This document shows positions 16,429 through 18,761 of a DNA stretch of 64,000 nucleotides, piece after piece. Numbering within the stretch: position 1 is the first letter of the stretch; every line of letters starts with the position of its first letter. Source of the stretch: Oscillospiraceae bacterium (lineage in GTDB: Bacteria > Bacillota > Clostridia > Oscillospirales > JAAYOS01); the NCBI GenBank assembly GCA_031264245.1, contig JAISEG010000009.1, positions 4,986 through 68,985 on the forward strand, written 5' to 3'. The position numbers and the translations under genes were made by a program. The notes under the pieces were generated by a model. The model saw only the letters and a program-made list of their open reading frames with translations, was not told the origin of the DNA and did no database searches.

Positions 16429-16823
16429 TTTTTTCACACTCCGACATCTAATAGTCGCAGTCGCCGCACAATGTCTATCCGCCAAAAGAAGAATTATGTA
16501 ACGCTGCAATATAATTCTTCCCAAATACGCAAAACAATATCCGAAAAAGATGAAAAAATACTTTCCGGAGGTTAGCTCCGCGTGTCCGTCTCCGGTAAAT
16601 TTTTGCCCGGACAAAGGACTGGTTGGGGGGATAGAACACCAACCGCTATTACATTTTATTGCGGCTGGAGGGATTTGGAGCAGACAATATCAAGTTCATT
16701 ATAACAGTTTATCATAAAATCCGCAATATACAATTTGCATAATATCCCTAAAACCCAGTTTTTCCGACATGACCGTGAAAAATAAATTTATACCTGTGAT
16801 GTATTTTGTATAATCAGCGTACG

Positions 16824-17096
16824 CCCCGTCCCCCAGTGGACAGTTGAGAGTTGAGAGTGGACAGTTGGGGGAACAACCCGCAGGGCGCGTTTCTCGTCCC
16901 CAACTTTCAATTGTCAACTCTCAACTCTCAACTGTCCACTGGGGGACGGCGGACGCGCAATGCGCGCCCCTACAAACAATCGTCTCCCCACCCGTTCTCG
17001 TCCCCAACTCTCAACTCTCCACTCTCAACTCTCCACTCTCAACTCTCAACTCTCAACTGCCAACCGTCCTCTTCACCCTCCGGGACGGGGCGCAGA
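16824..17096. repeat. composite repeat block: ~45-bp inverted-repeat arms of CAACTNT heptamers, a P-family core (GCGGACGCGCAATGCGCGCCCCTAC), a heptamer array, and left copy of a ~60-bp direct repeat
   Basis: 16824-16870 and 16899-16950 are reverse complements; 17004-17064 holds >8 tandem CAACTCT/CCACTCT units; 17031-17096 recurs at 18697-18761. Confidence 0.8.
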
Positions 17097-17185
17097 CCCA
17101 TACGCGGAGTTCAACTGAGAAGCACTATACCTTGTTGTCGCGCGACGAAGCCAACACCACATGTTGTAAGAAAGGACGAAAGACC

Positions 17186-17461
17186 ATGGACGAAAGAAAC
17201 GAAAGAATGAGGAAGAAGAACGAATCAAAAAACAGGTATGCGAAGAAGAACTTCTCGACCTGCTGCGCGAAAGTTCGAAAGCACAAGGCAATCGCATTCA
17301 TGGTGCTCTGTGAGGACTACGGATTGTCCCGGCACACCGTCATCAGGGCTTTCATAGAGGACTCTATCGAGAAGGGTGCGTTCAATCCCTACATCCTCGC
17401 CAGAGCTCGCAGGAACTACCAAAACTATCTTGCGCTCCTAGACAAAAGGGGAAGATGACAA
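17186..17461 (+). CDS. small basic protein with helix-turn-helix-like segment (hypothetical)
   Basis: 91-aa ORF (MDERNERMRKK...); AAAGGA RBS 9 nt upstream; the longer ORF 16844..17458 reads through heptamer repeats and was trimmed. Confidence 0.4.
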
Positions 17462-17504
17462 GCCCTCGCGGGAGCGTCCAAAGCTACGGAGAGAAGGAAT
17501 TACT

Positions 17505-17870
17505 TTGAGTGGTAAAAGTTGCAGACTCACTGCAAACGTCATGAGTGAGCAATTGAGCGATCGCCCGCCGCGGCGGGCTTGCTCGTTCGCCTGCGCTCAC
17601 TCCCCCAGGAACGCCCCGCGGGGGACGCGCCGGGTGGGCGGGGCGCGCACTCGCTCGCTCACTTGACGCCAAAGTTTTGGCTTTGCGCGCGGGGGCGCGC
17701 AAGTCGCTCGCTCCTCGCACGCGCCCCGCCCGCCCGGCGTGAACTACGGGGGCTATAGTCCCAAACGGTGCGTGCGCTTTCCCCTTTCATTCCTCCCATT
17801 GTAACCTCCGAGTCAAGGGACCGTAAGCACCCTTGACTCCGGAGGTTCCTGCGGTCGAAAATGAAAGGAG
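17505..17870. other. GC-rich non-coding region with nested long inverted repeats (candidate structured RNA / origin-like DNA)
   Basis: Arms GACGCGCCGGGTGGGCGGGGCGCGCACTCGCTCGCTCAC and GCGCGCAAGTCGCTCGCTCCTCGCACGCGCCCCGCCCGCCCGGCG around the CCAAAGTTTTGG centre; a terminal hairpin CTCCGAGTCAAGGG-N-CCCTTGACTCCGGAG sits just before the HNH gene RBS. Confidence 0.5.
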
Positions 17871-17879
17871 AAACCAGCA

Positions 17880-18242
17880 ATGAAAACACAGTGGGACAGA
17901 AAAGAAAAAAGGAACCTGAGAAACATCATCTTTGAGAGGGACAGCTACACATGCATCTTCTGCGAGGAACCAGCGAGCGACATTCATCACGTCATCAAAA
18001 AATCGAAGGGAGGACGTGACAATCCGTACAACCTCGTATCAGTCTGCAGGTGGTGTCACAGTGCGCTCCATGGAGTTGGTGTGAATGAACCCAGACAGGT
18101 GACCATAAAGGAGCACATCACAAACGACATGGTTGAGGAGTACATCATCGAATACCTGAGCGAGTGCTACGCCGATGACATAGGCTTCCATGAATTCTGG
18201 ATCACCGAATACGCAGACATGTACGAAAAACAAACGGAATGA
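17880..18242 (+). CDS. HNH endonuclease (small, 120 aa)
   Basis: CxxC...DIHHVIKKSKGGRDNPYNLVSVCRWCHSALH — canonical HNH motif with two Cys pairs; RBS GAAAGGAG. Confidence 0.8.
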   Translation: MKTQWDRKEKRNLRNIIFERDSYTCIFCEEPASDIHHVIKKSKGGRDNPYNLVSVCRWCHSALHGVGVNEPRQVTIKEHITNDMVEEYIIEYLSECYADDIGFHEFWITEYADMYEKQTE

Positions 18243-18254
18243 GCTTTGCTCATT

Positions 18255-18300
18255 CCCCAATTGTCAATTGTCAATTATCAATTATCAATTGCCATCCCCC
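18255..18300. repeat. H-family heptamer array (CCCC + CAATTGT/CAATTAT repeats)
   Basis: ccccaattgtcaattgtcaattatcaattatcaattgcc immediately after HNH stop. Confidence 0.7.
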
Positions 18301-18372
18301 CAACCGCCATTTTCGATAGTAGACACCATATGGTACAATTACTTAGGGTGGTAAAAGTTGCAGATTCCCTAT

Positions 18373-18443
18373 AATCGGATCGGTCTGCTCCTTTGGAAGA
18401 TTTGTGTCTGATCGGCGTAATCGGATCGGTCTGCTCCTTTGGC
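18373..18443. repeat. two tandem 25-bp direct repeats (TAATCGGATCGGTCTGCTCCTTTGG)
   Basis: Exact 25-mer at 18373 and 18419; followed by palindromes TTATTTATGCCG..CGGCATAAATAA and GCGAATTTCGCC..GGCGAAGTTCGC. Confidence 0.7.
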
Positions 18444-18678
18444 GGGTCTGGGTTCAGTCGTTACGTTCCTGCGGGGAATAAGGTTCCCGCGCTCGGCGCG
18501 AATTATTTATGCCGCACGGCGGGGACCCGGCGGCATAAATAACACGCACTCTCGCTCCCGCCGCCTGCGGGCGGCTTCCCGCGCGGTCGCGAATTTCGCC
18601 TAGCGCGGCGTCCTTGCCGCGCTGAACGGCGAAGTTCGCCGCTCCCTTCCGGGAACGAAAGACGAAGGACGGGGGAAA

Positions 18679-18761
18679 ACTCTCAACTGTCAACTCTCCA
18701 CTCTCAACTCTCAACTCTCAACTGCCAACCGTCCTCTTCACCCTCCGGGACGGGGCGCAGA
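18679..18761. repeat. H-family heptamer array plus right copy of ~60-bp direct repeat (overlaps alr 3' end)
   Basis: Same sequence as 17031-17096 through ...GGGACGGGGCGCAGA; encodes the last 14 alr codons. Confidence 0.8.

Follow-up and report, generated by a model that had tools for sequence, protein, structure and literature searches.

We analysed a 64,000-nucleotide stretch of an Oscillospiraceae genome (assembly GCA_031264245.1, contig JAISEG010000009.1, positions 4,986 to 68,985; hereafter the window), in which a cassette encoding a small HNH endonuclease lies between the alanine racemase gene alr and the toxin gene mazF. The evidence supports well that window positions 17097–18677 are one copy of a small mobile DNA element, and equally that its insertion point lies 43 bp upstream of the stop codon of alr, with 84 bp of target duplicated. 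Related elements occur elsewhere with host-derived repeats of other lengths, and the HNH gene encodes the only protein common to the whole family. On balance we think it more likely than not that they represent a new type of small mobile element, whose long target duplications of variable length arise through nicking by the HNH protein followed by repair.

The insertion and its target duplication

The window element is bracketed by a direct repeat of 84 nt with 98% identity (17013–17096 and 18678–18761, spacing 1665 bp), which encloses 1,581 bp (17097–18677); the full unit with one repeat copy is 1,665 bp. This was the sole such repeat pair across the 64-kb window, and no pair of at least 30 nt (at least 95% identical, spacing 800–2000 bp) was present in 669 kb of control loci. 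The right copy (18678–18761) runs on into alr and supplies the last 14 codons and stop of this gene (LCAPSRRVKRTVGS and stop), including the RVxR motif conserved in Alr relatives. The left copy (17013–17096) contains a heptamer array and an orphan set of the last 14 alr codons, its minus strand reading CAPSRRVKRTVGS and stop. The 84-bp target duplication therefore leaves alr intact, with an orphan copy of the alr 3' end beyond the insert. An independent Logan contig matched 17067–18401 at 100%.

The original prediction, made from the letters of the window, had described a ~60-bp direct repeat with a duplicated alr 3' end, its right copy encoding the genuine last 14 alr codons. Both statements hold, and the repeat is longer than proposed. 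An insertion event with a long target duplication had also been suggested, and is borne out by the eight related HNH cassettes with host duplications of 30–84 nt described below. The extent given for the cassette, 16615–18717, does not stand: the element is 17097–18677 plus one repeat copy, and the left 400 bp of the proposed interval are host repeat DNA.

A family of related elements

Three relatives of the HNH protein came from a word-indexed search, and about 75 (E<1e-19) from a profile search. Almost all of the latter were on contigs of 0.5–3 kb, as expected for repeats or small circles, and the named ones came from metagenome-assembled genomes (MAGs) of Oscillospiraceae or Clostridia. We compared the DNA context of about a dozen of these ~75 contigs (referred to here by L numbers). 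Family cassettes were 1.0–1.6 kb long and came from Oscillospiraceae MAGs and metagenome contigs, presumably of termite gut origin as the MAG names suggest.

Flanked units of 1.0–1.4 kb were present in L007, L009, L010, L004, L125, L130, and L251, with direct repeats of 40, 36, 54, 35, 64, 60, and 30–36 nt, respectively; the L125 unit was also assembled as L126 and L127. Together with the 84 nt of the window, eight integrated copies had host-derived repeats of 30–84 nt, no two of them alike in sequence, and no complete integrated copy lacked one. Because gene ends or starts are included in the repeats, the genes on both sides are intact. In L010 the repeat runs from one gene's end across the spacer into the next gene, of which it includes the first four codons; in L130 it takes in the ribosome-binding site of the downstream gene together with its first codons. 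We saw no target consensus at the repeat boundaries.

The left end of the elements, CCATACGCG, was conserved as CC(A/C)TACGCG, and the HNH gene always points away from it. In the window this terminus is CCCATACGCG (17097–17106, plus strand), and as in the family it directly follows the left repeat. The motif had the same position in L004, L007, L009, L125, and L130, and was found at the left edge of L013 and L008. Right ends showed no conservation within the family. Neither the elements nor the 30 window open reading frames (ORFs) of at least 250 aa encoded an integrase or transposase.

Movement and circular or tandem forms

Near-identical elements were found at different sites, showing that the family has moved recently. 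L119 was 95% identical to the L009 element up to the exact right repeat boundary, beyond which it continued into a different gene and flank. L252 agreed with the L251 element at 99.4% identity starting precisely at the left boundary, and had another left flank. Along with the repeats and the conserved end, these breaks between near-identical copies, exact to the boundary, show a mobile element that duplicates 30–84 bp of its target. L013 was a decayed remnant with a left end, the hairpin described below, and 34 HNH codons.

Two MEGAHIT contigs had terminal overlaps: 141 nt in L002, giving a 1,820-bp unit whose junction was spanned by the Logan contig L003 from another run, and 119 nt in L005, giving a 1,466-bp unit. 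At the L002 circle junction, a heptamer array and a short segment are followed by the left end, which parallels the repeat-plus-left-end layout of the window. L006 had two diverged tandem copies in one MAG.

The HNH gene and its leader hairpin

The HNH nuclease gene of the window (17880–18242, plus strand) encodes 120 aa, as originally predicted, and matched PF01844 (E=1e-8) and also PF14279. Across the family, the protein was 87–128 aa; the putative active-site residues are H36/H37, N51, and H60/H64. A single-sequence structure prediction reached a predicted local distance difference test score (pLDDT) of 51 and was discarded, and an alignment of 81 sequences gave a usable model. In this model the predicted fold was closest to the HNH domain of IscB and to the phage GVE2 HNH protein; the Gme nicking HNH matched less well. 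An RNA-guided nuclease was rejected as a reading: the HNH resembles that of IscB, but the protein has 120 aa and no RuvC domain. A known defence system was likewise rejected, as PADLOC gave only generic HNH-domain matches.

The leader of the HNH gene (17797–17879, plus strand) contains a CATTGTA box (17797–17803), a long hairpin (17805–17845) with the inner stem TCAAGGG/CCCTTGA at 17813–17836, and the ribosome-binding site GAAAGGAG. A hairpin of this kind precedes the HNH gene in 15 of 16 elements. Its 7-bp inner stem TCAAGGG/CCCTTGA was invariant, or compensated on both sides (GC-to-AU in L006 and L007), and the outer stem of 8–20 bp varied in sequence with pairing kept, i.e., it showed covariation. 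Most elements also had a CATTGTA-type box 5' of the hairpin, a small second hairpin 3' of it, and a GAAAGGA ribosome-binding site. The opposite strand of the hairpin block reads TTGACA-16-TACAAT, a putative leftward promoter, in most elements, with a spacing of only 7 nt in the window and L010. Each element, like the window as a whole, had a single occurrence of the hairpin pattern, and 80 control loci had none.

We found no family member in 2.9 million viral contigs, where an HNH alignment scan gave one distant match. A scan of the viral contigs for the hairpin pattern returned more than 120 chance matches, none beside a related HNH gene.

ORF90 and the variable companion genes

The second gene of the window element, ORF90 (17186–17458, plus strand), encodes a basic protein of 90 aa and has a GAAAGGA ribosome-binding site 9 nt upstream. 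It had no match in Pfam, PHROG, or PADLOC. Among 1.8 billion representative proteins we found only two relatives, both weak, with the common motif KVRK..F..C..G, and a match to DinJ was weak (E about 1). From its sequence pattern, which is ribbon-helix-helix (RHH)-like, ORF90 is probably a small DNA-binding protein. The basic ORF of the original prediction is confirmed here at 90 rather than 91 aa. The helix-turn-helix (HTH) fold assigned to it was not detectable, and the weak relatives suggest a ribbon-helix-helix instead.

Across the family, the second small gene varied or was missing. Companions often resembled the N-terminal HTH of phage small terminase (TerS), and small-terminase-like genes were present in L002, L005, L006, L120, L121, L124, and L251 (Terminase_2 at 59 bits in L002; phrog_309 at E=2e-9 in L121), with none in the window or L125. 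The companion was excisionase-like (Xis-like) in L009 and sigma-region-4/HTH_23-like in L010 and L130. L125 and L004 had no companion gene, yet the 64-nt repeat of L125 is perfect.

The pairing of a TerS-like companion with a small HNH protein, and the position of the element ends between both genes on the circular map, suggests that the family descends from the cos-proximal module of an HK97-type phage.

A proposed mechanism

The elements encode no integrase or transposase, and the only bacterial precedents that we found for such duplications are DDE elements with inverted repeats; we therefore propose that insertion proceeds by HNH nicking and repair synthesis. Like the small HNH proteins of phages, which it resembles, the HNH protein would be a nickase and would place nicks in the two target strands 30–84 bp apart, with a variable offset. 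The element, coming from a circular or tandem form and opened at its conserved left end, would enter the gap by joining or copying, and repair synthesis would double the sequence between the two nicks. Iterons may be bound by the small DNA-binding protein, which would there assemble or regulate the complex. Recombination between the repeat copies could then release circles and build tandem arrays.

A more specific form of this proposal is that the elements are autonomous transposons with an HNH nickase of ~100 aa as their only enzyme. Opening at the left end and target nicks 30–84 bp apart would leave the remainder to host replication and repair, as a DNA-level analogue of target-primed insertion. 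We put this form forward tentatively and hold it to be doubtful.

Several points weigh against the favoured reading of an HNH-driven mobile element. Terminal inverted repeats were significant only in L007 (15 nt), and the window element and seven others had none; without them and without conserved right ends, the geometry of the element is unclear. We infer, from the features above, both the nicking and the role of the HNH protein as the mover rather than a trans-acting factor. An HNH nuclease cannot join DNA alone, so that a host joining or copying step has to be assumed. ORF90 had no detectable link to terminases. The L002 and L005 contigs could be circles or, equally, tandem arrays.

The choice of sites and the missing ancestral state belong with these points. 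Two different elements lie directly upstream of orthologous genes labelled SSB/PriB-like by sequence likeness (L006 2936–3538 and L010 4605–5243). Their HNH proteins are 57–58% identical, and the downstream genes, from distant hosts, are 45% identical. This shared location hints at some site preference, which a random-nick model does not predict; an insertion hot spot and coincidence are both possible. We found no empty site from the same species; in the metagenome collections searched, the nearest alr was only 55% identical. Of the relatives and the empty-site allele that the original prediction proposed to look for, only the related cassettes were recovered. Exact sequence look-ups do not distinguish a filled from an empty site, since the filled form holds both junctions.

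Alternative explanations

The circular or tandem contigs would also fit a Campbell-type integration. Here a circle of 1.5–1.8 kb with a captured piece of host DNA (in the window, the alr 3' end) would enter by homologous recombination, possibly stimulated by a cut that the HNH protein makes in the chromosomal copy, and the repeats would be the segment of homology. P1 Ref is a parallel for such stimulation. Repeats of 30–84 nt are near the minimum for RecA-dependent recombination, and the layout of the L002 junction parallels the repeat and left end of the window. We nonetheless regard this explanation as unlikely: it has no account of a 95–99%-identical element at a new site with a new repeat, and it needs an unexplained capture of host DNA exactly beside the conserved left end. 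A minimal phage satellite or packaging module is also somewhat unlikely on present evidence; it bears on the manner of spread and is compatible with the HNH-driven element that we favour, as with the other rivals. The cassette would be the cos-proximal module of an HK97-type phage (small terminase, HNH gene, and cos site); the large terminase of a helper would package it, or the chromosome next to it, and it would spread as concatemers or in transducing particles. Companions in L002 and L121 match small terminase families, and on the circular map the HNH and TerS genes enclose the element ends, at the place that cos occupies in HK97-type phages. Small satellites are packaged as concatemers in the case of the phage-inducible chromosomal minimalist islands known as PICMIs, according to PMC10803314. 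Against it are the absence of any family member among the viral contigs, of a companion gene in L125, and of a large terminase, integrase, or replication gene; the window companion is not terminase-like, and the target duplications are left unexplained.

That the elements are non-autonomous cassettes whose movement depends on a DDE transposase of IS1634/IS1549 type, acting in trans, seems to us improbable. It would fit with the lack of a transposase in the elements and with the direct repeats of 8–514 bp made by IS1549/IS1634 (PMC2266710). However, terminal inverted repeats were absent in eight of nine elements, and conservation of the HNH gene and hairpin in every element is unexpected for passive cargo. 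The 30 large ORFs of the window, to which this search was confined, included no transposase. Still harder to sustain, and in our view very unlikely, is an integrase-less integrative or cis-mobilisable element whose repeats are attL and attR attachment sites, made by a tyrosine integrase from elsewhere, e.g., a helper phage or an integrative and conjugative element. Repeats of 30–84 nt and insertion at a gene 3' end with restoration of the gene are typical of att sites, the L009 companion is excisionase-like, and circular forms exist. Such a system predicts one site per element type, whereas every repeat was different, near-identical elements were at different sites, and the repeats of closely related elements were largely without a common core. 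Neither the elements nor the 30 large window ORFs included a tyrosine or serine recombinase. Finally, it is extremely improbable that the locus is a fragment of a decayed prophage, a repeat that arose by chance, or an artefact of assembly. The source is a MAG, and the identical 66-nt core of the repeat could mislead a short-k-mer assembler. Yet the architecture recurs at eight loci in different assemblies, several built with k=119–141, which exceeds the repeat lengths; the independent Logan contig agrees with the window, and the control rate of such repeats was zero.

Internal anatomy of the window element

Between ORF90 and the HNH leader, the element contains the first copy of an internal repeat of 34–41 nt (D3; 17498–17538, plus strand; AATTACTT.G.GTGGTAAAAGTTGCAGA), which is 83% identical to 18337–18377, and then GC-rich nested palindromes (17540–17790; arms 17615–17647 and 17720–17752) with GC up to 0.71. 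Following the HNH stop codon are a heptamer array of CAATTGT/CAATTAT (18254–18291, plus strand) and an iteron-like stretch (18337–18453, plus strand; repeats D3 and D4) made of the second 34–41-nt repeat copy and two 25-mers (18372–18396 and 18418–18442). A GC-rich palindromic part (18460–18677; arms 18498–18515 and 18530–18547) extends to the right end. The D3 and D4 repeats were element-specific, being absent from the other elements compared. GC-rich palindromic filler is a trait of the family. Other members had iterons of their own (ten 18-mers in L009, two 24-mers in L125), and arrays with other heptamer-type units were found 3' of the HNH gene in L002 (1040–1075), L125 (3620–3660), and L130 (4330–4420).

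Folding of 17459–17879 and of 18243–18677 was far better than that of shuffled sequences (z=-7.3 and z=-4.3). At the gathering threshold, Rfam matched only a tRNA in the whole window, and a permissive search of 16400–18800 gave only chance miRNA-like matches to the palindromes. A known RNA family as the source of the structured regions was rejected, as Rfam had no real match. The GC-rich nested inverted repeats of the original prediction were borne out by the 71% GC peak and fold z-scores, and the Rfam check that it suggested for a structured RNA returned no known family. The heptamer inverted-repeat block and second heptamer array that it listed were located at 16826–16949 and 18254–18291. 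The two 25-mers, described as tandem, are 46 nt apart rather than adjacent.

The mazF–alr locus and dispersed host repeats

Both flanking genes are on the minus strand, 2,290 bp apart. The alr gene (18718–19872) matched Ala_racemase_N (E=2e-63) and Ala_racemase_C (E=3e-42), the C-terminal domain match reaching profile position 126 of 127. Alr stops four residues past RVxR, 10–17 residues short of all compared relatives (window 18718–18770), and its stop codon comes from a heptamer array. The mazF gene (16072–16428) encodes a PemK-family toxin (Pfam PemK_toxin E=8e-37) and is a host gene outside the element.

We found no MazE-like ORF in 16429–16830, in agreement with the earlier statement that an antitoxin gene is missing between alr and mazF. 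The further claim that the cassette occupies the antitoxin slot did not survive comparison with the closest relative, L039 (Alr 55% and MazF 85% identical), where the alr–mazF gap is 276 bp. This locus has neither the cassette nor a MazE ORF, and the cassette therefore did not replace an antitoxin. Among 80 metagenome alr loci, mazF was downstream in 33 with gaps of 220–620 bp, and distant relatives encode an RHH MazE there. ORF90 is on the strand opposite to mazF and 760 bp from it, unlike mazEF pairs, in which the antitoxin gene is directly upstream. Upstream of mazF is a conserved non-coding leader (16429–16545, minus strand) that aligns with L039 6260–6373 (~110 nt) and has stop codons in all frames. 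It may serve in regulation as a leader, or be an antitoxin that is not a protein.

The stretch 16615–17012 is made of host-type dispersed repeats. It includes an inverted repeat of heptamer arrays (I1; 16826–16949, 42-nt arms 95% complementary) and a repetitive extragenic palindrome (REP)-like GC palindrome, GCGGACGCGCAATGCGCGCCCCTAC (16949–16983), both outside the element. Other intergenic copies of the palindrome are at 22329–22354, 40075–40109, and 60249–60314 (starts 60249 and 60283), and further heptamer arrays are at 18682–18723, 47561–47602, 23576–23622, and 55255–55291. Since heptamer arrays and the REP-like palindrome are dispersed in the host, we assign the left ~400 bp of the interval first proposed for the cassette to host intergenic DNA. 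The arrays have 5–8 heptamers (CAACTCT, CAACTGT, CAATTGT, and similar) edged by C or G runs, and are located on or just past the stop codons of host genes, e.g., at 47561 and 23576. The stop codons of alr and of the ORF at 46453–47565 are both inside heptamer arrays. These arrays may be a lineage-wide gene-end repeat.

A gene for a collagen-like GXY-repeat protein (window 23636–24790) adjoins a heptamer array, and a collagen-like gene also follows the element in L009 (2814–3965). Elsewhere in the window (50868–53182), an RNHCP-domain gene, an ATP-dependent DNA ligase gene (51189–52298), and an Abi_2 abortive-infection gene (52319–53182, minus strand) are side by side. A check of the window for non-homologous end joining genes found no Ku gene beside the ligase.

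Comparison with known systems

The original prediction could place the gene content in no nameable mobile-element class, and none of the classes that we tested or found in the literature fits. We found no description of such elements in the literature, which is weak evidence of novelty. The only bacterial precedent that we found for long, variable target duplications is the IS1634/IS1549 group, in which insertion makes direct repeats of 8–514 bp (PMC2266710). The likeness lies in host duplications that are long and vary in length from copy to copy, and in a similar size of 1.5–2 kb. The IS1634/IS1549 elements have a DDE transposase and terminal inverted repeats, whereas the elements here have neither and share only an HNH protein of ~100 aa. 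In the window element, the only supported ORFs are ORF90 and the HNH gene, and units of 1.0–1.6 kb have no room for a DDE transposase.

Free-standing HNH homing genes of phages are likewise small selfish HNH cassettes located between conserved genes that they do not disrupt. Homing, however, uses one cognate site through break repair and makes no target duplication, in contrast with the varied sites of near-identical elements, the 30–84-bp duplications, and the circular or tandem forms seen here. The small terminase-associated HNH proteins of cos phages, such as HK97 gp74 and the Geobacillus phage GVE2 HNH, are encoded in the packaging operon of a phage of 30–60 kb together with a large terminase, while in our elements the HNH and companion genes are alone in a chromosomal unit of 1–1.6 kb, with no counterpart in the viral contigs searched.

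Phage-inducible chromosomal islands (PICIs) and PICMIs are also chromosomal, can encode a small terminase of their own, and need a helper phage. They differ in having an integrase, regulators, and fixed att sites; the elements here are three to five times smaller, without an integrase, and at varied sites. Phage satellites are at least about 5.5 kb long, and the units that we found are 1.0–1.8 kb with one or two small genes. Packaging as concatemers is described for PICMIs in PMC10803314.

IscB/OMEGA systems combine RuvC and HNH domains in 400–500 aa with an omega RNA, whereas the proteins here have the HNH only and are four to five times smaller. Rfam, including the IscB-associated HEARO RNA, gave no match at E up to 5. 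Elements of the IS200/IS605 kind make no target duplications.

To our knowledge, well-characterised prokaryotic transposable elements all rely on DDE, HUH, serine, or tyrosine recombinases, or on Cas1. A transposon moved by an HNH nickase would, if this reading is true, use transposition chemistry outside all of these classes. The family would represent a transposition mechanism that is new or else a phage-derived hitchhiker smaller than any seen so far, and the element is small enough to synthesise and mark, which makes both possibilities directly testable. Its conserved hairpin and left end offer search handles for more members, and its long duplications show how insertion into the 3' end of an essential gene such as alr can leave that gene undamaged.

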